DNA of 32,000 nucleotides, from contig JADFLH010000002.1 of NCBI GenBank assembly GCA_022564515.1, positions 25,007 through 57,006 on the forward strand. Direction: 5' to 3'. Shown here piece after piece: positions 14,410-24,555 of the stretch. Source of the DNA: Nitrososphaerota archaeon (lineage in GTDB: Archaea; Thermoproteota; Nitrososphaeria; Nitrososphaerales; Nitrosopumilaceae). A program made the position numbers and the translations under genes. Positions within the stretch are counted from its first letter, which is position 1. Every line of letters begins with the position of its first letter. The notes below the pieces were generated by a model. That model did no database searches. It was not told the DNA's origin and saw only the letters and a program-made list of their open reading frames with translations.

Positions 14410-15351
14410 TTGCTGCTGTATGTGTGGGTTCTAGTATGTAGCTGGATAGTACTTACTAGTTATTTTTACCAAAACGGGAATAAGTCATTTAGATGTAAAT
14501 TGGCTACTAAAAAAGTTATTTTCGGAAACTATCCAGTTGACGTTAAAAAATATGAAGAGATTAGAGATGAGCTTTTAAAATTTGGTTTGACATCAAATCA
14601 AGTAAAGGTATTTTTTTATCTTGGAAAATTTGGTTCAAAAACGGCAATTGAGATAAGCAGAAATTTAAGAATGCCAAGAACTGAAACGTATCATCTTTTG
14701 TCATCACTTCAAAGTAAAGGAATGGTTATGTCAAGTTTTAATCATCCAACTAAGTTTTCTGCAATTCCATTTGACAAAGCAATGGTTGCTCTTCTCAATG
14801 CAGAATCAGAACGGCTAAAATCTTTAAAAAATTCAGAAGATATCCTAAAAAAACTATGGGCTAAAATTCCTAACTTTGGATCCAGCCTTAATGAGATAGA
14901 AGAAGAGAAATTTCAGATATTAAGAGGTGAAAATCAGGTAAAAAGTAAAATCATGGATATGATTTCTGATGTTGAAAAAAAGTTTTTAATTCTTGGCTGC
15001 GAGGATGATTTTTTGAGATTTTATCGTGCAAATTTCCTTGAACTTTTTGAAAACAGCTCGATCAATTTCAAATTCCTTACTTCCACTTCAGAAAATGCAT
15101 GGTACATTTTTGATGATATTGACAAATCAAAGATAAGACAAGTTGCCAATTCAGTTATAGAAAATCTCTGCTTTCTCATTAAAGATGATAAAGAAATCCT
15201 CATTTTTGTAAAAAATTCGAAAATTATCCAAAAAGAGGTAATTGCACTTTGGACAAATTCTAAATCTTTAATTTATTCTAATATTCTTTTGTTCAAGAGT
15301 TTGTGGTCTATCCAATCAGAATCCATTATAGAACAAAAGATTTCAAAATAG
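14410..15351 (+). CDS. TrmB-family transcriptional regulator
   Basis: LLKFGLTSNQVKVFFYLGKFGSKTAIEISRNLRMPRTETYHLLSSLQSKGMV is a TrmB winged helix-turn-helix. The start is uncertain: no ATG precedes the HTH, and the candidates are TTG 14410, GTG 14422 and TTG 14500. Confidence 0.8.
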   Translation: MLLYVWVLVCSWIVLTSYFYQNGNKSFRCKLATKKVIFGNYPVDVKKYEEIRDELLKFGLTSNQVKVFFYLGKFGSKTAIEISRNLRMPRTETYHLLSSLQSKGMVMSSFNHPTKFSAIPFDKAMVALLNAESERLKSLKNSEDILKKLWAKIPNFGSSLNEIEEEKFQILRGENQVKSKIMDMISDVEKKFLILGCEDDFLRFYRANFLELFENSSINFKFLTSTSENAWYIFDDIDKSKIRQVANSVIENLCFLIKDDKEILIFVKNSKIIQKEVIALWTNSKSLIYSNILLFKSLWSIQSESIIEQKISK

Positions 15352-15463
15352 GTTCAATTCGGACCTAAAATGATGGATGATAGATTCTAACGGATAGTTG
15401 GTATTTCTGGCCTATACTGAGTGATGAAAAGAATTTACTGGTGGGTATTGTGTAGAATTTGTT

Positions 15464-16288
15464 TTGGATTTAAAATCAATCATTGGACTTGGCGTGGCAG
15501 GAAATTTCACCGGTCATCTGGAACAAGCAGGTGAAGCAGAAGATTTTGCAAATATTAAAGTTCAAGACGAAAAGGCGCCAAAGGGCTTGTTTCCTTTTTA
15601 TTCAAATTCCAAAACGGGAAAGTTCATAGAAATTTATCCATTATCATCGAGCAAAATTTCTAGGCCGCCAAAAGGCGAGAGCCTACAAATTGAACCAGAG
15701 GTAGCACTAATTTGCGAAATTTCTTATAATAAGGGTCAAGTCATTGATCTCAAACCAAAAAAATTTACGGCATTTAATGATTGCACCATTCGCAAGCCAG
15801 GAGCTAAGAAGATAAGTGAAAAGAAGAACTGGGGAAAAAACTCAAAGGGTATTTCCTTGACTCATATAGACATTGATGGATTCTCACGCGGAGGTGTAAT
15901 GGATACATACCGCCTTGCCTGTTATTTGAAAAGGGATAACGAATTGCATGAATATGGTATAGATAGTCCTCTTATTGGTTATAGCTATTTTTATGAGAAG
16001 CTGCTCAACTGGATAGTTTTTAAAATGAATACACAGAACGATGAAGGTCCTTTGGAATCCATTGCAATGCATTTGAAAGAGTCCGGATACCCTGCTAATG
16101 CAGTTATAGCGATTGGCTCAACACGCTATACCGAATTCGGCGAAAGTACGTTTCTAGATGTTGGAGATGAGAGTTTCATTATAATTTATGATTCAAAACT
16201 CCATACCAGAAGATCCGTTGAGAAACTTATACAAGATTCAAATTACACTGTTAGTGGGCTATCTATTTTACATCAAATAGTTGTTTGA
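15464..16288 (+). CDS. Conserved hypothetical protein (274 aa), possibly a distant fumarylacetoacetate-hydrolase-like fold
   Basis: Long clean ORF with a TTG start. The N-terminal GLGVAGNFTGHLEQAGE loosely resembles the G.N(Y/F)..H..E motif of FAH-family proteins; this is a weak call. Confidence 0.5.
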   Translation: MDLKSIIGLGVAGNFTGHLEQAGEAEDFANIKVQDEKAPKGLFPFYSNSKTGKFIEIYPLSSSKISRPPKGESLQIEPEVALICEISYNKGQVIDLKPKKFTAFNDCTIRKPGAKKISEKKNWGKNSKGISLTHIDIDGFSRGGVMDTYRLACYLKRDNELHEYGIDSPLIGYSYFYEKLLNWIVFKMNTQNDEGPLESIAMHLKESGYPANAVIAIGSTRYTEFGESTFLDVGDESFIIIYDSKLHTRRSVEKLIQDSNYTVSGLSILHQIVV

Positions 16289-16430: not shown

Positions 16431-17567
16431 TTACGTTGCTGGTATTGAATACCATGGCTTGCGTGGCCACATGCCCCATTTCACAATAAGTGAAATTACG
16501 GTAAGGTATATCATGACAATTATTGGTTCGATCCAGTTTGCATTTGCAGTTCCAGGTTCGATTCCCATAGCCGGCTCTACTCCATAGAGAAGTAATGCTC
16601 CTGCTCCTAGAGGCATTATTGCAACGAAGACAAACATGAGACTCCATGATCTTGCTATTGCGCCTCCCAAGTCACGATATGTGCCGTGTGGTTCTTTCCA
16701 CTTGTCTTTTCCTAAATACGTCTGCATACCACCGCAGTACCAATACACCATTCCTTGTAACAGCATAGCACCTATAATGTTACCCAGAGTTACTGGAACA
16801 AGATTATTGAACCATGCTTCACCCCATGTAACTTCGGCACCAGCCCAAATTCCAGCTGACAGGGCAAAATGATTAACGATGCTGTGTTCAAACCCTGTAG
16901 CAAAGAATACTGATACTGGTATTCCGATCAAGACAATCTTGGCGATCACTTCTTGTGTTCTGAAGGCTCCCCATACACCCATGCCAATCATCCAGTTTGC
17001 AAAGATTCCACGGTAGAACAGCTGGTCCCATTGAAGACCGACTGACTTTACAGTAGCGATTTTTGCAAGCATGTTCATAAGTGGAGCTCCTACTGCGCCT
17101 GCTTGATCTGCGCCAATGACAATCATCCATCCAATGACAAATCCTGATATCCAGTGACCTGCATGTGTTATGCCCCATTGATAAAACACCTCTAGCCACT
17201 TTAGTTGACCCGTCATCAGCGATATGCCCGTAGTCATATAGTCCCCAGTTACTAGGTTGGAACCATATATGATGACGAGTACTAATGCGGCGAAGCCGAA
17301 GATGCCGAACATGAGGAACTTTCCAAGTCCTGGAGATAGGTCTGTTGCCACAGTTGACATGACCATCCATGCAAAGAAGGCTGCAAATGCAAGATAACAC
17401 ATTGACTGCCAGCCCATTATTATGCCCTGAGCTGGATTACATTTTGCCTTTGCAACTCCTAAGGTACTTAATGTTTTGATTGTATCCCGTATGCCAAGTA
17501 ATGCTGCATTCATCCGTGGTGGAGGAACATCAGTTGGCGTACTAGGAGGTTCTGTTTGCGTACTCAT
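16431..17567 (-). CDS. Formate/nitrite transporter (FNT) family anion channel with N- and C-terminal extensions (378 aa)
   Basis: FNT signatures are present: NLVTGD, FANWMIGMGVW, GFEHSIVNHF and NLVPVTLGNIIG. About 98 further residues follow the normal C-terminus, with two more hydrophobic helices. The sampled lines are about 45% GC. Confidence 0.85.
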   Translation of the reverse strand: MSTQTEPPSTPTDVPPPRMNAALLGIRDTIKTLSTLGVAKAKCNPAQGIIMGWQSMCYLAFAAFFAWMVMSTVATDLSPGLGKFLMFGIFGFAALVLVIIYGSNLVTGDYMTTGISLMTGQLKWLEVFYQWGITHAGHWISGFVIGWMIVIGADQAGAVGAPLMNMLAKIATVKSVGLQWDQLFYRGIFANWMIGMGVWGAFRTQEVIAKIVLIGIPVSVFFATGFEHSIVNHFALSAGIWAGAEVTWGEAWFNNLVPVTLGNIIGAMLLQGMVYWYCGGMQTYLGKDKWKEPHGTYRDLGGAIARSWSLMFVFVAIMPLGAGALLLYGVEPAMGIEPGTANANWIEPIIVMIYLTVISLIVKWGMWPRKPWYSIPAT

Positions 17568-17636
17568 ACTTCACGTAGCTGACTTTTCTTATTATATAAC
17601 GTTAATTGTATTATTCCGGTTTATATCATCAATTTC

Positions 17637-17656
17637 AGATCTATGTAACTAGATCT
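17637..17656. promoter_or_regulatory. Palindrome AGATCTA-tgtaac-TAGATCT in the divergent FNT/LTD intergenic region; a third AGATCTA lies at 17717..17723
   Basis: Read directly from the sequence. It sits about 40 nt distal to the TATA-like ATTATATAA at about 17592..17600, which is itself about 25-33 nt upstream of the FNT ATG. Confidence 0.5.
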
Positions 17657-17853
17657 TTTATCTACAGTTAGTTGAGCAAAAAATGACAAAAATTTAGAGT
17701 TCGCTTACAATATAAAAGATCTAGCCATCTTATTGACTTTGTAAAGACAACATAAATTCTAATAAAATTCCCCGACATCGGGTAATTTGCATCCAGTCCA
17801 TGCACATGTGTTAAAAAAACCAATTTAAGGCTGTATAATATCACAAAAATGGT

Positions 17854-18813
17854 TTGGGGAGTTTATTATTGCTCATACATCTAGCTTTATCATTACTCGT
17901 TTTACCAGCAGCTTTTGGGGAAGAGTCTAGTGGTATGATTATCAACGAGCTTGAACTAAATCCGCCTCCAGGGGAAGCTCAATGGATAGAACTGTATAAT
18001 CCAACCACATCTTCAGCTTCTTTGAACTCTCTTGAATTATTGTCCGTCGATGGTGAAAAAGTCAAAAAAAGATTCAGTCTTTCACCTATCTTCCAGGAAA
18101 ACATCAAACCCGGGGAATACTATGTAGTACAAATAGGGGAACCGCAAAATAATTTCTTTGACTATAGACTTAATTCATTTGTTTTATCGGATGGACAAAC
18201 AACTTTAGATTCTGTACGTGGGTTAAGTGATGAACTTGCAAATGAACGGACTTGGCAGCGCTTTCCAGATGGTGGAGATACGGGAGAATTCAAGGATTGG
18301 ACTTTTAGACCAGCTACAAAGGGGACAGAAAATAGCGACGTAATGACACTTGTTGCCGAGTGTTACCTCAATCCATTCTGCTGGGGGGCACTAGATGTAT
18401 TTATGCACAGAGCACATATCGTAAAAGTAGAAGATGTTCAGTTTTCGATTGGCACATTTTATGATCCCACTTTACTTAGGGTATACTTAATTCCTGAAGA
18501 AAAAAAAATTACAATAAAGAAACCATTAGTAGACTTGGCTCAGGGGGATAGACCTGCATTTATGCACGTAACAATACCTATTGAACTTTTGAGTGGGACC
18601 TATTCTGTCAATTCTGAAAAGGGTCCACTGCCTTTTGAACAAATAGATAATGGAACCCACTCTCGGTTGATAATAGGAGGGCTTTCACACGAAAGCTTGA
18701 TTGAAATAACCGGGACAGTGATTGTTCCTGAATTTTCACTTGGCACGCTAATGCCAATGGTGGCTGCAATTTTTCTAGTCATATTGTTAAAGCAGAGATT
18801 TTGGAAATATTGA
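17854..18813 (+). CDS. Secreted lamin-tail-domain (LTD) protein with a PEFG-CTERM-like anchor
   Basis: Signal peptide (LLLLIHLALSLLVLPAAFG). LTD motif INELELNPPPGEAQWIELYNPT...L.SLELLS. C-terminal VPEFSLGTLMPMVAAIFLVILLKQRFWKY. TTG start; the exact start is uncertain. Confidence 0.8.
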   Translation: MGSLLLLIHLALSLLVLPAAFGEESSGMIINELELNPPPGEAQWIELYNPTTSSASLNSLELLSVDGEKVKKRFSLSPIFQENIKPGEYYVVQIGEPQNNFFDYRLNSFVLSDGQTTLDSVRGLSDELANERTWQRFPDGGDTGEFKDWTFRPATKGTENSDVMTLVAECYLNPFCWGALDVFMHRAHIVKVEDVQFSIGTFYDPTLLRVYLIPEEKKITIKKPLVDLAQGDRPAFMHVTIPIELLSGTYSVNSEKGPLPFEQIDNGTHSRLIIGGLSHESLIEITGTVIVPEFSLGTLMPMVAAIFLVILLKQRFWKY

Positions 18814-18938
18814 GGTTCTCATAAGAAAACATGTTTTGGTCAAGCTGTATAACACCTGTAAGAAATTTTCATCTTGTCAAGAAATTTTTATGTCTTGAAT
18901 TATTCAGCGCATTATTGTTATGTGTTTGATTGTACTGC

Positions 18939-18986
18939 GATCTAAATATTGATCGGTCGATCTAAATCGATCATGTAGATCTAAAT
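18939..18986 (+). repeat. Three exact direct copies of GATCTAAAT (starting at 18939, 18959, 18978) interleaved with further GATC sites, upstream of cynS
   Basis: Read directly: gcGATCTAAATattGATCggtcGATCTAAATcGATCatgtaGATCTAAATaaag. A TATA-like TATAATA at about 19011 follows, 29-36 nt before the ATG at 19047. Confidence 0.85.
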
Positions 18987-19046
18987 AAAGTAGCAATCCC
19001 AAAAAAAGAGTATAATACTACTTGATCGATTACACTATTGAGCAAT

Positions 19047-19598
19047 ATGGCAGATTTAGTAGTAACAGATGAAACCATAATGGCCGCAAAACTTGCTATG
19101 GAAGCAAAAGGATACAATTACACAGGCGCTGGCGGGAAGAAATCACTGGCAGCAGTCATTAAGAGAAATCCTGTATTCTTAGCTGCAGCAATAAATGGAG
19201 TGCAAAGACTTACAACCTCTGATGCGGACGCGATCGCAAATACTCTTGGCCTTTCGGCACAACAAAAGGCAGAGTACAATCGCCACCCAAGGAGAAAATT
19301 CTCAGCATTGCCAAATGATCCATTCAATTACAGATTGATAGAGGTCATAGCAAACTATGGGGATCCCGTAAGAGAGATTGTCAATGAATTGTTCAATGAC
19401 TTCACCCTCCCAGGAAGTGGAGATTCAGGACGTGGTGGAGACGGAATAATGAGTGCAATTGACTTTAGTTACCACGTCTTTAGACGTACAGAAGGTAACC
19501 AAATACCTGAAACAATATTACAAGAAGCAGATCCAAAGATGAACAACAGATGCACCATATTAATGGACGGCAAGTGGCTAAACTTCAAAGCATTCTAG
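19047..19598 (+). CDS. cynS: Cyanase (cyanate hydratase / cyanate lyase)
   Basis: Compared from memory with E. coli CynS: PNDPFNYRLIEVIANYG vs PTDPTMYRFYEMLQVYG, GDGIMSAIDF vs GDGIISAINF, and the C-terminal MDGKWLNFKAF vs LDGKYLPTKPF. The catalytic Arg, Glu and Ser are all present. The ATG at 19047 is preferred over the TTG at 19038. Confidence 0.85.
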   Translation: MADLVVTDETIMAAKLAMEAKGYNYTGAGGKKSLAAVIKRNPVFLAAAINGVQRLTTSDADAIANTLGLSAQQKAEYNRHPRRKFSALPNDPFNYRLIEVIANYGDPVREIVNELFNDFTLPGSGDSGRGGDGIMSAIDFSYHVFRRTEGNQIPETILQEADPKMNNRCTILMDGKWLNFKAF

Positions 19599-19643
19599 CA
19601 AAAAAGTAAAGCGGTTATAACCAAACTTTCCCTTTTTTTATTT

Positions 19644-19805
19644 TCAACAATCGGTAAGAAGGTGTCCGATAAATTTCAAACCAATTGTTAAATCGAGATC
19701 CCCAAAAGGATTTTTACATTTGCAACGAACCTACATTCCTTTTACTTGGTTTGCTTTGGGATTTTTTGTCACACGATATTTTATTGTTTTAAGATTGCAT
19801 TTCAT
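19644..19805 (-). pseudogene. Small Cys-rich reading frame interrupted by an in-frame TAG (19731..19733)
   Basis: My own translation gives MKCNLKTIKYRVTKNPKANQVKGM*VRCKCKNPFGDLDLTIGLKFIGHLLTDC*. It shares the CNLKTI motif with the neighbouring small ORF. Confidence 0.25.
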
Positions 19806-19832
19806 TCTTTGGGCAGATAAACCATTCCAGTT

Positions 19833-19994
19833 TCAATCTTCCACCGCTTTCCACTTTTTGCAACAAAAATAATACATTGTTCCTCTTGGTTCTTTACCCT
19901 CTTCAAAATATGATCCTACTCCTTGTAATCTCATTGGCTTACCGCATTCATCACAAATTGTTTCCTTTTCTTTGATTTCTTCTATTGTTTTCAA
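19833..19994 (-). CDS. Small zinc-ribbon-like protein (about 53 aa) with a putative TTG start overlapping the upstream stop
   Basis: My own translation gives (M)KTIEEIKEKETICDECGKPMRLQGVGSYFEEGKEPRGTMYYFCCKKWKAVED*. It has a CxxC ... CC pattern. The TTG at 19994..19992 overlaps the TGA at 19993..19991 of the 94-aa ORF. No ATG occurs before Met21, so this may instead be a frameshifted remnant. Confidence 0.3.
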   Translation of the reverse strand: MKTIEEIKEKETICDECGKPMRLQGVGSYFEEGKEPRGTMYYFCCKKWKAVED

Positions 19995-20275
19995 GTTGCA
20001 TCTTCCCTTGCATGAGAACTCGTTACTTCATTGGCTGCACTCCATACCATAGAACAATACCTGCATTTTTCTACATGCTTGGCTAAAAAGACCCCCTCTT
20101 GAAATCGAACGTCTTGTGGACTCAATCCTATTCTATGAGCCAAGTCCTCAACTCTTGCTCTCTTTTCTTCATCCATTTCAACTCCTTCTGCTATTTTTTC
20201 TAAAAGTGGATCATTTCTGAAAACATCTTCTTCATCAAAATTTTCCGAATGCAACAAGATAGAAAAAAGCTCCAT
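19991..20275 (-). CDS. Hypothetical acidic protein (94 aa) with one CxxC
   Basis: Clean ORF with an ATG start. No motif recognised apart from CRYC. Confidence 0.45.
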   Translation of the reverse strand: MELFSILLHSENFDEEDVFRNDPLLEKIAEGVEMDEEKRARVEDLAHRIGLSPQDVRFQEGVFLAKHVEKCRYCSMVWSAANEVTSSHAREDAT

Positions 20276-20620
20276 GAATAAAACATTGGTAATAAAAGGA
20301 ATTAGACAAACTAAGCTCTAACAAAACATATTTTCGACTACCTAGTCAAACGCAGTTTTTCAATCGTAAAAGCGATTAAAATTGCTTATCTACAGGCGTA
20401 AGTTTTCATCTTTCAAACCTGAATGGTCAAAAGTGGGATGCCATTCTCAATTAAATGTCGATCAGTCAACCGATTGCACTAAAGGATCAATCCTCAAGTG
20501 AATAGATCTTTTTTGCTAGGAGTGAAGTCTTTCATAATTTTGTATGGTGGAAAATCTACCTCATTTTACATGTTAAATCATAACTTAAGAATCGAAATAA
20601 ACAAGGGTCTAATTATTTTT

Positions 20621-21556
20621 TTATTTGTTTAACACATTATTTAATTCTAAAATGCTAGACTTTTTCTTTAATTCCTTGATAACTATAATATTGTCATCTA
20701 TCATTGAATGTGTATTTAGCCTAAATTTCATTAGCACATTTAAAAATTCAACTCGTTCTTCAGGATTCAGAGTTTCATTGGCCTCATTTATGAGACCATC
20801 CAGATTTGAAAGTAACATCCTCAGAACTAACAAAGACTTCTTGAATATTTTGATCTGTCGCTTTGGTGACGTATCTTGTTGTGAGGAAGTATTGTAATTA
20901 TAGTCACCAATAACTTGCTCTAACTCTATTTCCTTCTTCGAAGCTTTAGTGATCTCTCTAATGTTCTTAACGGACAAGTTTTCATCAATGATTGCATCTT
21001 TAAGCAATTGTTGGTACCCCTCATCCAGATTAACCAGTTCCATTGCATGAGAAACGCCAAGATTTTTTTGAGATATTTCATATAGGATCTCTTTTGGAAG
21101 TCTAAGTAACTGAATTCTGGCAGAGATGTTTTGCTCGCTTTTGGAAATGACTTTTGCTAGATGAGAAACTCCTCCCCAACCATAGTCCACGATGTATTTC
21201 TTGAAAGCCTCTGCCTCTTCTATAGGATCAAGACTTTTTCTTTGTATATTTTCAACAAGCTGGATTTCAAACGCTGCCTTGTCAGACAGTATCCTAACAA
21301 TACAGGGAATTTTTTTCCACCTTAAGAGTTTACATGCATTATATCTTCGGTGACCTGAAACTATTTCAAAACCTACTTCTGCTGGTCTGACCGTTATGGG
21401 TTGAATAAGGCCATGCTCCCGTATGCTTGCAGCTAATTCCCTTTTTGCATCAACTTGAACAATTAGAGAATTTCCTGTCCTGACTGTTAGCACTGCAGGT
21501 TTTATGCTGCGAATTTCAATGAGGTCTTGAATAGATTGGTCAGTAATAAGGATCAT
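20621..21556 (-). CDS. ParB/Spo0J-like protein (N-terminal ParB/Srx domain, HTH, helical C-terminal region); no ParA partner nearby
   Basis: LAASIREHGLIQPITVRP....FEIVSGHRRYNACKLL is the ParB N-terminal box including the GxRR motif. IQLVENIQRKSLDPIEEAEAF and the HTH-like VSHLAKVISKSEQNISARIQLLRLP follow. Confidence 0.8.
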   Translation of the reverse strand: MILITDQSIQDLIEIRSIKPAVLTVRTGNSLIVQVDAKRELAASIREHGLIQPITVRPAEVGFEIVSGHRRYNACKLLRWKKIPCIVRILSDKAAFEIQLVENIQRKSLDPIEEAEAFKKYIVDYGWGGVSHLAKVISKSEQNISARIQLLRLPKEILYEISQKNLGVSHAMELVNLDEGYQQLLKDAIIDENLSVKNIREITKASKKEIELEQVIGDYNYNTSSQQDTSPKRQIKIFKKSLLVLRMLLSNLDGLINEANETLNPEERVEFLNVLMKFRLNTHSMIDDNIIVIKELKKKSSILELNNVLNK

Positions 21557-22070
21557 TGGTACCCCTCGGTGATGTACTCCACGTCTTTACTCATGTTAAT
21601 TCCAAAAGGTAGTGATATTAATAAACTTAAATTTATTGTTGAGGTCTCCCGATATTTTCCCAACATTATAGATATGCAGGTGTTGTGAAACACAGAAATG
21701 AAATGATGTTTTTTCCAATAAAATAAATTTCATTTAAAATTATAAATCACTAAAACTACGAAAATCCTTCAACAATCAAAGATTCATGCGAAAAGGTCTT
21801 TTTTGGCCAATCTTAATTCCAGTTTTTTGGTTTTTTTAAAAAACTAAATTACACAATATTTTAGTAATAGAAATTATATTTTTTAAGACTCAGTTCTGAA
21901 ATGCCTAAAAATCCAATTCCATGTTTATTTTCATGTGCAAGTTTTTCATATTATTTTTCTTTGATGAAAATTTGGCATTGCTTTTGAATATTCGTTTCTA
22001 CTACGGTAAAAAAACAGAACCTTAAAAGTTAAATCGAAGCCAAAAATATTCTAAGGGTGGAATCAAAGAA

Positions 22071-22193
22071 ATGAAAGACAAGAGTGGAGATGTAAAAAAA
22101 AAGAAACCAGCTTCTAGGAGGTTTTGGATTGTTTATGGGATAGTAGCTATCGGTGGGGCCGCTATACTATACTTATTGGGCTGGGTTATTTGA
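22071..22193 (+). CDS. Small single-TM protein (40 aa), below the ORF-track cut-off
   Basis: My own translation gives MKDKSGDVKKKKPASRRFWIVYGIVAIGGAAILYLLGWVI*, a basic N-terminus plus one TM helix. Confidence 0.3.
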   Translation: MKDKSGDVKKKKPASRRFWIVYGIVAIGGAAILYLLGWVI

Positions 22194-22279
22194 TGGCCAA
22201 AAATCGAGTCCATGTATAAGACCTGATTTTGTACATGAGATGTAGATCTTATATACCGACAGCAAGATTATCTTTTTGA

Positions 22280-23173
22280 TTGGATTACCAAAAATATGAA
22301 AAAATGCCTCTTGAAAGGGAGGTATTGTGGCAAGGTCCAGTAAAAATAGACCAAAGTTTCGTTAAACATCTTTCAGACTCAGACCATCATGAAGATTTTC
22401 AAATATACACAATAAGAGATTCTAAATATCATAAGGAGGATAATGGACAATATGACAACACCGAATTGGTGGGAGATTTTCCTAACACGGTAACAGTAAT
22501 TGTAAAAGGTAAAGAAATTTTGGATTATATGCAGTGTTCCGCATTTAAGGACTATGAATATGTGGAGAGGACTAAGGGATTCTTCTTCAAGGCCGGTGTA
22601 AAAAAAAGGATAGTGGTTAAAGGCTTTGTCCTTGAACCTCTTTCAGATACTAAAGTAGTGGATCATGCATGCTTAGCCTCAATTCAATTCGATAATCAAG
22701 AAACTGGCAACGAAATACAATGGAATTTCGTTCATACGGGACTAACCGATAAATTTGTTTCAGAAAGTGATTTTTTTACTTTGGGGGGATCATTTACTCT
22801 AGAAAAGTTGGGATTGGCAGGGTTCGCCTCAGGCTCTCATGGTTCAACTATCACCTTCGCTACCGACCCCAAACACTCCGCAACAATTGCTTTCGTTGCT
22901 TCAGACTCTAAGCCTTTCACAGTACTCCTTTATTCCAAATACGGAACGAGGAGGCTTACATACACCAATGCTGGGTTGAAGACAGAGGAGTGGAAACCAG
23001 AAGAACTCACAGACCCAGCTCCAAAGTCAGGGCAGTCAGAAGCCTCCAACGATGCGTTAAAGATTCTTAATACTCGACTCGCTAGAGGAGAATTAACGAT
23101 ATACGAGTATGAGGAGCTTCGAAAGGCAATAGAAGGTGAAAATCGCCATTCTTATACTGACTATTGGGCATAA
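22280..23173 (+). CDS. Protein with an uncharacterised beta-rich N-terminal region and a C-terminal SHOCT domain
   Basis: The C-terminal ALKILNTRLARGELTIYEYEELRKAIEG fits the SHOCT pattern (L..L..L...G.I(T)..E(Y/F)...K..L). The TTG at 22280 lies about 25-30 nt downstream of the TATA-like TTATATA at about 22249. The alternative ATG is at 22304. Confidence 0.65.
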   Translation: MDYQKYEKMPLEREVLWQGPVKIDQSFVKHLSDSDHHEDFQIYTIRDSKYHKEDNGQYDNTELVGDFPNTVTVIVKGKEILDYMQCSAFKDYEYVERTKGFFFKAGVKKRIVVKGFVLEPLSDTKVVDHACLASIQFDNQETGNEIQWNFVHTGLTDKFVSESDFFTLGGSFTLEKLGLAGFASGSHGSTITFATDPKHSATIAFVASDSKPFTVLLYSKYGTRRLTYTNAGLKTEEWKPEELTDPAPKSGQSEASNDALKILNTRLARGELTIYEYEELRKAIEGENRHSYTDYWA

Positions 23174-24242: not shown

Positions 24243-24410
24243 GTTCTTCCAAAACTTTGTGAAATCGTGTTATAATTAAACTATTACAAAATTGTTAGAG
24301 AAATCCAACTATAATTGAGAGAAAAATTATTTCTTTTTTCATTTTCTTTGCCTCTTAGTTAAATTACTCATAAATTCTTCTAAAATTTTGTACTCAAAAA
24401 AATATGAAAA

Positions 24411-24504
24411 TAGACCGGATGGGATTTGAACCCATGACCATTGCGGGATTTAAAATCCATACGCAGTGTGAGTGCGTCATCCTAAACCACTAGACAACCG
24501 GTCC
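24411..24504 (-). tRNA. tRNA-Val (anticodon CAC) carrying a roughly 20-nt insert between the anticodon stem and the T stem (putative non-canonical intron)
   Basis: The reverse complement is GGACCGG-TT-GTCT-AGTGGTTTA-GGAT-G-ACGCA-CTCACAC-TGCGT-[ATGGATTTTAAATCCCGCAATGGTC]-ATGGG-TTCAAAT-CCCAT-CCGGTCT-A. The total is 94 nt, against 74-75 nt expected. Confidence 0.7.
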
Positions 24505-24555
24505 ACTGGTTTTAGAAATTAAGAACTTTTTTGTCTTTAGATTATGGAAAAGAAT

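Follow-up and report, generated by a model that had tools for sequence, protein, structure and literature searches.

The locus raises the question of whether an ammonia-oxidising archaeon (AOA) of the marine type carries a system for the utilisation of cyanate. The window, the whole stretch of 32,000 nucleotides that was analysed, represents an uncultured, AT-rich, marine-type lineage (35% GC) with relatives labelled Nitrosopumilus and Cenarchaeum. According to a 2023 review, N. gargensis is the sole genome-sequenced AOA with a known cyanase (PMC10432482). This agrees with the position taken in an earlier, sequence-only reading of the window. The genome papers on sponge AOA do not mention a cyanase, and in our literature search we met no paper that describes cynS for Nitrosopumilaceae or for sponge AOA. 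The three open reading frames that had been singled out, for a cyanase, an FNT-family channel and a surface protein, are all present at the positions proposed. Together with their neighbours, they probably form a thaumarchaeal cyanate-utilisation cluster, akin to the cynS-FNT pairs of N. gargensis and Nitrospira, in a 35% GC genome of the Nitrosopumilaceae type. Lineages thought to be without a cyanase would then gain a likely direct route from cyanate to ammonia and CO2.

The gene at 19047..19598 (+) encodes a divergent cyanase of the CynS family. Translation from the ATG at 19047 gives a protein of 183 aa, and translation from the TTG at 19038 gives the 186-aa form used by NCBI, where the protein is already labelled 'cyanate hydratase [Thaumarchaeota archaeon]'. 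The Pfam profile of the catalytic C-terminal domain (Cyanate_lyase, PF02560) matches residues 90-184 with E = 7.6e-20 and 70.9 bits, compared to a cut-off of 25, and thus confirms the family identity. In an alignment of 63 cyanases, we also found the predicted Arg96/Glu99/Ser122 triad (E. coli numbering) in the window protein, and the three residues are conserved in all aligned members of its clade. The length of the E. coli CynS reference, 156 aa, and the aligned ranges agree with PDB entry 1dw9.

The expectation of a canonical cyanase was not borne out, since the protein misses both NCBIfam whole-protein cut-offs (TIGR00673, 69.7 versus 113.3; PRK02866, 82.2 versus 150), has no match to the N-terminal domain model PF21291 in the Pfam search, and carries three insertions. 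It belongs instead to a strongly divergent, insertion-bearing clade. The insertions are specific for this clade: one of about 6 aa is located in the N-terminal domain, one of 14 aa immediately precedes GDGIMSAI, and one of about 17 aa precedes the last strand. They break the NCBIfam match into two stretches. As the 14-aa insertion is located six residues ahead of the catalytic Ser, and as the NCBIfam cut-offs are missed, an altered specificity is possible. The clade is tiny, with 2 of 1.84 billion 50%-identity clusters at E < 1e-30.

The gene at 16431..17567 (-) encodes an extended FNT-family anion channel of 378 aa. Family membership is supported by the Pfam profile Form_Nir_trans (PF01226, E = 3.9e-51, 174.2 bits versus 34.6), which is matched over positions 2-240 of 240. 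The description as extended is also correct. A core of approximately residues 29-280 is followed by a C-terminal extension of about 100 aa, which is conserved, has two predicted TM helices and contains residues that are invariant across 21 sequences; the N-terminus is variable and Pro/Ser-rich. Every NCBIfam FocA or NirC equivalog cut-off is missed (FocA, 114 versus 290; NirC, 65 versus 293), and about 105 thaumarchaeal clusters are at least 57% identical to the protein over the full length, with ordinary FNTs falling to about 30%. Judged by its sequence, the window FNT belongs to a subfamily separate from the FocA and NirC equivalogs.

Among FNTs of solved structure, Chlamydomonas LCIA (9v2a, E = 4.8e-31) ranks first, ahead of HSC, FocA and NirC. 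The pore motifs are kept: FEHS is aligned with LEHS of LCIA and LVTGD with its LFTGN, HSC has the same motifs, and the central His (H228) and the omega-loop Thr (T107) are invariant in alignment A4. LCIA, a proposed bicarbonate or nitrite channel, is the closest solved relative, and therefore the window FNT may carry nitrite, bicarbonate or formate instead of cyanate. The earlier suggestion of a cyanate importer is plausible, but specificity for cyanate is not supported, because the subfamily often occurs without cynS (L029, L031-36). Since it is far commoner than the cyanase (about 105 clusters versus about 14 for module-type cyanases) and often stands alone, cyanate transport is a role that we infer.

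Between the two genes, the reading frame at 17854..18813 (+) encodes an LTD protein of 319 aa, which is predicted to be secreted and anchored in the membrane at its C-terminus. A signal-like helix is present at the N-terminus. The predicted layout comprises a lamin-tail-like beta-sandwich, a highly conserved linker (TWQRFPDG...AEC.L.P.C), a second beta-sandwich, a PEF motif, a TM helix and a basic tail, and the C-terminal end reads ...VIVPEF, a hydrophobic stretch and KQRFWKY. The Pfam LTD profile (PF00932) scores 31.8 bits, just below its cut-off of 34.3, and homologues carry precomputed PF00932 matches. With the AF2 model (pLDDT 62, pTM 0.43), Foldseek retrieved Ig-like folds only, including the lamin tail (probability 1.0, TM 0.57) and archaeal pilin/FlaG. 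An LTD/PEFG-anchored surface protein had been proposed. The anchored surface protein stands, the PEFG motif does not: in alignment A2, PEF is invariant but the residue after it varies, and none of the NCBIfam sorting-signal models matches the protein (the best is Loki-CTERM, E = 0.053, 13.8 versus 19.9 bits). Only 16 full-length clusters make up this small family.

The distance from the FNT start to the cynS start is 1,479 bp, in line with the estimate of about 1.5 kb. The proximity of cynS and FNT, within a few kb, is conserved across about 20 loci, and every module locus shows the linkage of FNT to cynS/LTD. The LTD gene is at most about 1.4 kb away from FNT in every one of these, with no convincing gene in between. 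The order is FNT(-) LTD(+) CynS(+) in the window and in L001-6, CynS(+) LTD(+) FNT(+) in L007-12, CynS(+) .. LTD(-) FNT(+) in L013/14, FNT(-) LTD(-) CynS(+) in L015/16, and CynS(-) LTD(+) FNT(+) in L027/28 and L030. At least five different arrangements bring together FNT, LTD, CynS and a SHOCT-domain protein, usually with a ParB-family protein as well. The host genomes are MAGs labelled Nitrosopumilus sp., Cenarchaeum sp. or Nitrososphaera sp., with a locus GC of 35-56%. Adjacency of cynS and FNT is also found independently in bacteria, in Moraxellaceae (L019) and Synechococcus (L022), with FNTs that are 27-30% identical to the window FNT. The cynS-FNT pairing is not due to chance. It is not core content either: in a pattern-limited scan of 185,579 species-representative genomes, the close clade was detected in 4 loci only.

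Downstream of cynS, the small orf94 (94 aa, 19991..20275, -) is found on same-species contigs only and gives very weak HTH hints, so that its membership in the cluster is uncertain. The gene at 20621..21556 (-) encodes a ParB-family protein with Pfam and NCBIfam matches (ParB_N and HTH_ParB). Homologues with 54-59% identity adjoin the module in L013-L016, L023, L027/28 and L030, and are absent beside L007-12. The protein is possibly a DNA-binding regulator, or else a chromosomal landmark. The product of the gene at 22280..23173 (+), 297 aa in length, is cytoplasmic; its N-terminal region is uncharacterised, and a SHOCT domain (Pfam 24.1 bits, cut-off 27) is located at its C-terminus. By tblastn, homologues with 37-45% identity are found in L007, L013-16, L023, L025/26, L027/28, L029 and L030, and the SHOCT gene accompanies the LTD gene in every related locus that is long enough to check. 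In L025/26, the SHOCT and LTD genes are present as a pair but FNT and cynS are absent, so that the tie of this pair to cyanate may be positional only.

The intergenic regions of the cluster contain repeats. In the divergent FNT/LTD intergenic region (17568..17853), there is an inverted repeat AGATCTA-N6-TAGATCT at 17637-17656, and a third AGATCTA at 17717. Three direct copies of GATCTAAAT, with a spacing of 20 and 19 bp, form a candidate operator at 18939..18986 (+), 61-108 bp upstream of the cynS ATG, and no further exact copy is present in the window. All six intergenic AGATCT sites of the 32-kb window are upstream of module genes, one of them 36 nt upstream of the SHOCT gene. More broadly, AGATCT-type repeats precede FNT, LTD, cynS, orf94 and the SHOCT gene, and are missing from all other intergenic regions of the window. 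The AGATCT motif is not conserved in other cluster loci.

In the mechanism that we favour, cyanate, an anion at seawater pH, would enter through the pentameric FNT channel. The cytoplasmic cyanase, with its family assignment and triad established, would convert cyanate and bicarbonate to carbamate, and this to NH3 and 2 CO2. NH3 would then be assimilated, or would exit the cell to reach the ammonia monooxygenase (no amo genes are located within the 32-kb window), and CO2/HCO3- would be available for carbon fixation. In this reading, the enzyme itself is an offshoot of the archaeal cyanase clade that has evolved fast but has been maintained by selection, and its three loop insertions are specific to the lineage. 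We can only guess that the surface protein might assist the extended FNT outside the cytoplasm, and that the ParB and SHOCT proteins might be regulators that act on the AGATCT-type repeats upstream of each gene.

The divergence of the cyanase could also mean that the protein is no longer a cyanase: its substrate or its oligomeric state would have changed, or its role would be non-catalytic, with the motifs kept by ancestry. The missed NCBIfam equivalog and subfamily cut-offs, the modest best PDB match by phmmer (E = 3.3e-8), the three insertions, one of them beside the catalytic Ser, and the long branch in an NJ tree are in favour of such a scenario, as is the low confidence of the C-terminal half of the AF2 model. 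Nevertheless, we regard it as improbable. The triad residues are kept throughout the aligned clade, the flanking motifs PNDP..YR..E and GDGI.SAI are almost unaltered, and the linkage to FNT is retained. At dN/dS values of 0.05-0.11 among clade members, the divergent cynS is under strong purifying selection. Moreover, an intermediate archaeal clade with a 7-aa insertion at the site of the 14-aa one matches both Pfam cyanase domains and has the same gene context. In the AF2 model, the N-terminal helices have a pLDDT >90. Every significant Foldseek match of the model is a cyanase, and the top 18 matches align over 163-181 columns with TM 0.37-0.44 and an rmsd of about 17 A; the low TM-scores probably reflect the comparison of a monomer model with domain-swapped crystal dimers. 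A chimeric or mis-assigned contig, which would make the cluster foreign to the Nitrosopumilaceae-type archaeon, is extremely improbable, even though the related locus L014 in a MAG labelled Poribacteria demonstrates that binning errors occur. The representative cyanase of the window's 90%-identity cluster is found on at least 17 contigs, and the six contigs that were inspected, from six different samples, agree in their gene order and, if long enough, have archaeal housekeeping genes on either side. The relatives are part of single-contig chromosomes of 1.6-2.5 Mb that bear the label Cenarchaeum or Nitrosopumilus. The thaumarchaeal host assumed earlier is supported by identical proteins (MCH7967817/19/31) named 'Thaumarchaeota archaeon' at NCBI, by archaeal housekeeping genes in the window, and by a tRNA-Val of 96 nt, which is long enough to contain an intron.

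More weight has to be given to the possibility that the cyanase is a housekeeping or detoxification enzyme for cyanate that arises intracellularly from carbamoyl phosphate or urea, or scavenges nitrogen solely for assimilation, that the FNT is a general thaumarchaeal channel for nitrite, bicarbonate or formate, and that their nearness is due to an old conserved neighbourhood and not to the import of cyanate. This would fit the wide occurrence of the FNT subfamily, which is present alone or duplicated in several 2-3 Mb genomes, the kinship of the channel with LCIA, and L029, where LTD, FNT and SHOCT genes are next to sucCD and a cyanase is absent. The ParB and SHOCT neighbourhood, kept from a Nitrososphaera-labelled MAG to the window, would also fit inherited synteny. 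However, the genes have stayed within a few kb through at least five rearrangements and IS insertions, and no transporter is needed to remove cyanate that forms internally. In bacteria, unrelated FNTs adjoin cynS (our own loci and PMC12342949), which suggests a functional rather than a historical link. On balance, we consider the housekeeping explanation rather unlikely. At the other extreme, the four or five genes could be a dedicated AOA system for cyanate capture, import and conversion, in which the surface protein partners the two-helix module of the FNT and binds or funnels the anion, and in which the ParB protein has been recruited as a regulator on the AGATCT palindromes. Such a system would imply true growth on cyanate for some marine and sponge-associated Nitrosopumilaceae, and appears distinctly doubtful to us. 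The cyanate-utilisation cluster that we favour does not explain the cultured Nitrosopumilus strains.

In comparison with the E. coli enzyme and other solved cyanases (1dw9, 6xgt, 5uk3, 7o74), the window protein shares the Arg96/Glu99/Ser122 triad, the motifs PxDPxxYRxxE and GDGIxSAI, the DGK(Y/W)L strand at the C-terminus, and probably the two-domain layout. It differs by an identity of only 24-28%, and by a length of 183 aa versus about 156 aa, with insertions of about 6, 14 and 17 residues. In contrast to E. coli, the window cluster lacks the cynT/cynX operon arrangement. The channel has the six-TM core, the central His and the omega-loop Thr in common with FocA, NirC, HSC and Chlamydomonas NAR1/LCIA, whereas the two-helix C-terminal module and the variable N-terminus mark a Thaumarchaeota-specific subfamily. 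Its identity to any of the characterised FNTs is about 30%. The tail of the LTD protein has the same three parts as archaeosortase/exosortase signals (PEF-CTERM, PGF-CTERM), namely the invariant PEF, a hydrophobic helix and a basic end, but it matches none of the NCBIfam sorting-domain models and its PEF is without a fixed G.

The closest parallel is the cynS-FNT (focA/nirC) cluster of N. gargensis and Nitrospira, which later papers (PMC10753782, PMC12342949) credit to Spang et al. 2012 and Palatinszky et al. 2015. There, as in the window, a cytoplasmic cyanase gene is found beside an FNT gene. cynS and nirC are adjacent in 83.7% of cynS-positive lineage I Nitrospira (PMC12342949), cynS and FNT are also adjacent in N. 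gargensis, and the import of cyanate in these nitrifiers has been attributed, as a proposal, to the FNT (PMC12342949, PMC10753782). All five genes of the window cluster recur in L030, a locus from a MAG labelled Nitrososphaera sp., and their products have identities to the window proteins of 54% (ParB), 40% (SHOCT), 42% (CynS), 37% (LTD) and 64% (FNT). The window cluster is therefore a relative of the known AOA arrangement and not a new invention, and we infer, via this MAG, that it is orthologous to the cluster of N. gargensis. We found no published mention of LTD, SHOCT or ParB partners of a cyanase. Most likely, the cluster is a version of the known cynS-FNT cyanate module of AOA and NOB that is particular to the Nitrosopumilaceae type, with a strongly modified enzyme and with partner genes for which we found no description. 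With respect to L030 and the known AOA cluster, the window is set apart by its marine-type host with 35% GC, and by a cyanase with three insertions and an identity of only about 42%.

The three open reading frames of the sequence-only reading exist as proposed; its observation as a whole is confirmed, and its interpretation is supported in part. An FNT channel of 378 amino acids (16431..17567, minus strand) matches the FNT model over its whole length (174 bits). The cyanase gene, cynS (19047..19598, plus strand), encodes 183 residues, or 186 with the TTG start at 19038 used by NCBI. An exact-sequence look-up retrieved identical NCBI proteins for the cyanase (MCH7967819.1, the TTG-start form, already annotated "cyanate hydratase"), the FNT (MCH7967817.1) and PurD (MCH7967831.1); all three are encoded on an 84.9-kb contig of a MAG labelled "Thaumarchaeota/Nitrososphaerota archaeon". 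The window has an overall GC content of 35% and elsewhere carries ordinary chromosomal genes, for IleRS, the alpha and beta subunits of succinyl-CoA synthetase, PurD, a DEAD-box helicase, a PHO4 phosphate transporter, peroxiredoxin, pyruvoyl arginine decarboxylase and tRNA-Thr. The length of the tRNA-Val(CAC) gene (24410-24505, 96 nt) points to a probable intron, which fits an archaeal host.

The cynS product scores 70.9 bits (cut-off 25) with the Pfam model for the catalytic domain of cyanate lyase. In an alignment with 62 other cyanases, the predicted Arg/Glu/Ser triad is present (Arg96, Glu99 and Ser122 in E. coli numbering), and the PNDPxxYRxxE and GDGIMSAI motifs are also intact. The description of the enzyme as canonical is not borne out. 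The scores fall below both NCBIfam cut-offs (82 versus 150 for PRK02866, 69.7 versus 113 for TIGR00673), the N-terminal Pfam cyanase model has no match in the protein, and the top match among solved structures, the fungal enzyme 6xgt, reaches only E=3.3e-8. The alignment traces these weak matches to three insertions, one of about 6 residues within the N-terminal domain, one of 14 residues (NDFTLPGSGDSGRG) directly before the Ser motif, and one of about 17 residues ahead of the last strand. All significant Foldseek matches of the AF2 model (pLDDT 76) are cyanases; their global TM-scores are low, which is to be expected because the model is a monomer and the matched structures are domain-swapped dimers.

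The insertion-bearing clade is tiny. When the representatives of 1.84 billion clusters were searched exhaustively with phmmer, only two clusters reached E<1e-30; nine clusters of this type, defined at 90% identity, came from a word-indexed search. The divergent cynS is not decaying: between clade members dN/dS lies at 0.045-0.106, and conservation extends to the insertions. The clade is long-branched in a neighbour-joining tree built from anonymous database matches and six named bacterial loci, and the sequences closest to the window cyanase by identity are other archaeal cyanases linked to the same genes. The window clade appears to be a fast-evolving branch of these archaeal module-linked cyanases. 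A second insertion-bearing sub-clade (P0008/P0009; 46-48% identical, 191-193 aa), with a third insertion that is longer still, is represented at 924-1505 of L024, a short contig on which TatA and HicA genes adjoin.

Comparison with related genomes, a check that the earlier reading had called for, revealed that FNT, LTD surface protein and CynS are linked across relatives, in gene orders and orientations that vary between loci. The cyanase that represents the window's 90%-identity cluster shares 98% identity with the window protein and is found on at least 17 contigs, and the window gene order is repeated in all six fetched contigs of the same type, from six different samples. Remoter cyanases of the clade (64-67% identical) lie on contigs of 1.6-2.5 Mb labelled Cenarchaeum sp. 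or Nitrosopumilus sp., at loci with a GC content of 50-56%; these high-GC genomes are probably those of sponge symbionts. Each of these loci contains, by tblastn, homologues of the FNT (74-76% identity), the LTD protein (42-47%) and the SHOCT-domain protein encoded at 22280..23173 of the window (43-45%). A ParB-family protein (58-59% identity) is encoded near the module in L013-L016 and not in L007-L012. IS elements (rve, DDE_3, HTH_Tnp_1) surround the cluster in the high-GC genomes of L007-L012; in L010 such an element separates cynS from the LTD gene, so that the locus varies between strains. L014 (CBDAOT010000006.1, 33.8 kb), from a MAG labelled Candidatus Poribacteria, carries archaeal cynS, LTD, FNT, SHOCT and ParB genes with identities and order nearly those of the Cenarchaeum sp. 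chromosome L013, and probably comes from an archaeon in a sponge sample and was binned wrongly.

The same gene context surrounds a second, less divergent cyanase clade (163-164 aa, 40-42% identical to the window enzyme), in which both Pfam domains are matched and only a 7-residue insertion is present where the window protein has 14. It was seen in L023, L027, L028 and L030. L023 is archaeal (its contig carries Cdc6, Kae1 and RIO), and L030, from a MAG labelled Nitrososphaera sp. at NCBI (GC 48%), has ParB, SHOCT, CynS, LTD and FNT together. As this context extends to the less divergent cyanases, including the Nitrososphaera-labelled locus, the cluster is old within ammonia-oxidising archaea (AOA). 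It is also rare rather than core content: 185,579 genomes, each representing a species, were scanned with patterns that detect the divergent clade only, and four loci were found.

Within 16431-23173, GC3 is somewhat raised in the FNT gene (0.40), cynS (0.38) and the SHOCT gene (0.35), against 0.20-0.32 in the other genes examined, which points weakly to codon selection or to acquisition from a relative with higher GC. Despite this, a mobile island was rejected, because housekeeping genes lie on the flanks and the region contains no integrase; recent transfer is for the same reasons only weakly suggested. Next to the FNT gene on its upstream side (14410-16288) are genes for a TrmB-family regulator and for a DUF5718 protein. 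These are not counted in the module, since they were seen in contigs of the same species only and none of the other module loci has them.

About 105 clusters make up the subfamily of the FNT, which is specific to Thaumarchaeota; its members have 345-440 aa and at least 57% identity over the full length, beyond which identity drops sharply to about 30% for ordinary FNTs. The C-terminal extension contains two extra helices; it is not peculiar to the window gene, being kept throughout the subfamily, so that "extended" describes all members. Among FNTs of solved structure, Chlamydomonas LCIA is nearest; it has been proposed as a channel for bicarbonate or nitrite. The suggestion that the FNT imports cyanate is favoured by its persistent linkage to cynS and by the independent adjacency of the two genes in bacteria (among the fetched loci, Moraxellaceae L019 and Synechococcus L022) and in published cases, namely Nitrospira lineage I and N. 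gargensis. Against it stands the frequent occurrence of the channel without cynS: subfamily members adjoin a large periplasmic-binding-type protein gene in L031/32 and UbiA in L033/34, and in L035, from a 3-Mb genome, two copies of the extended FNT gene lie 6 kb from each other. As many members stand alone, the FNT has roles independent of cyanase, and from the linkage and the bacterial parallels we infer that it may be used for cyanate here. Two copies a few kb apart, without cynS, were seen in some thaumarchaeal genomes of 3-4 Mb (L035, 1-8134; P0190/P0191), next to Ldh, AIRC and radical-SAM genes.

The 7.5-kb contig L029 (1-7507, GC 37%) contains sucD, sucC, LTD, FNT, two ORFs without assignment and the SHOCT gene; its sucCD are 74-75% identical to those of the window, and the contig has no cyanase gene. 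L029 could be explained either by loss of cynS, or by an FNT/LTD/SHOCT core that predates it. L025/26 retain LTD and SHOCT genes, and lack both FNT and cynS.

The surface protein (17854..18813, plus strand) does lie between the FNT and cyanase genes, with a signal-like N-terminus and a tail consisting of VIVPEF, a hydrophobic helix and KQRFWKY; the motif is PEF and not the PEFG claimed earlier, and curated sorting-signal models do not match the tail. The lamin-tail match is just below threshold (31.8 versus 34.3 bits). Only 16 full-length clusters belong to this small family, most of them from module contexts, and it has invariant TWQRFPDG, a Cys pair (AEC.L.P.C), two His and the PEF motif. 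Its AF2 model (moderate, pLDDT 62) has two beta-sandwiches on a C-terminal helix; Foldseek matches are lamin-tail, archaeal pilin or FlaG-type Ig folds, with no enzyme fold among them. The SHOCT gene (window 22280-23173; L007 14660-15541; L013 16225-17046; L025 9208-9987; L030 3767-4552) accompanies LTD in every related locus long enough to check, even without FNT and cynS. It encodes 260-297 residues with a C-terminal SHOCT domain and an unassigned N-terminal region, of which 250 residues match nothing in Pfam or PDB even at lenient thresholds. One might guess that the surface protein is an accessory to the FNT, and the SHOCT protein a regulator.

All six intergenic AGATCT sites of the 32 kb lie upstream of FNT/LTD (17637-17723), cynS (18939-18986), orf94 (20503-20509) and the SHOCT gene (22243-22249), whereas by our own arithmetic about 0.3 would be expected in the roughly 2 kb of module intergenic DNA, from 5 sites in about 30 kb elsewhere. 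The repeats include three exact copies of GATCTAAAT at 18939-18986, 61-108 bp upstream of cynS and nowhere else in the window, an AGATCTA-N6-TAGATCT palindrome upstream of FNT/LTD, and AAGATCTA. No shared motif emerged when intergenic DNA from eight loci was scanned for common k-mers, and AGATCT is confined to the window species among the loci compared. The repeats suggest co-regulation in this species only, and may serve as operator for a regulator peculiar to it.

In the ocean, cyanate is present at measurable levels as a source of nitrogen and energy, and it is oxidised by marine Thaumarchaeota. Some Nitrosopumilaceae-type lineages carry a cyanase with a linked channel, among them an AT-rich lineage from several metagenomes and the high-GC genomes that are probably sponge symbionts. 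As the enzyme scores below curated equivalog thresholds, surveys based on such thresholds may under-count AOA cyanases. With the cluster, cyanate use by AOA of marine type or associated with sponges becomes open to direct test: its genes can be expressed, assayed for transport and used as read-mapping targets when cyanate is traced, and the surface and SHOCT proteins stand out as conserved, uncharacterised partners. How N. maritimus uses cyanate is not explained by it; no search returned a close homologue under a cultured-strain name.

According to a 2023 review (PMC10432482), no genome-sequenced AOA other than N. gargensis has a known cyanase, in agreement with the premise of the sequence-only reading. 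Genome studies of sponge AOA report no cyanase, and a 2025 MAG study places cynS in Nitrososphaeraceae genera only. Our literature searches found no report of cynS in Nitrosopumilaceae, nor any account of the insertion-bearing clade or of LTD, SHOCT and ParB proteins as its conserved companions. Two papers (PMC10753782, PMC12342949) describe cynS beside an FNT gene in Nitrospira lineage I and N. gargensis, and propose the FNT as a cyanate importer. The present cluster differs from that arrangement in its apparently unreported occurrence in Nitrosopumilaceae-type genomes, and resembles it in placing a cytoplasmic cyanase beside an FNT channel in a presumed nitrifier.
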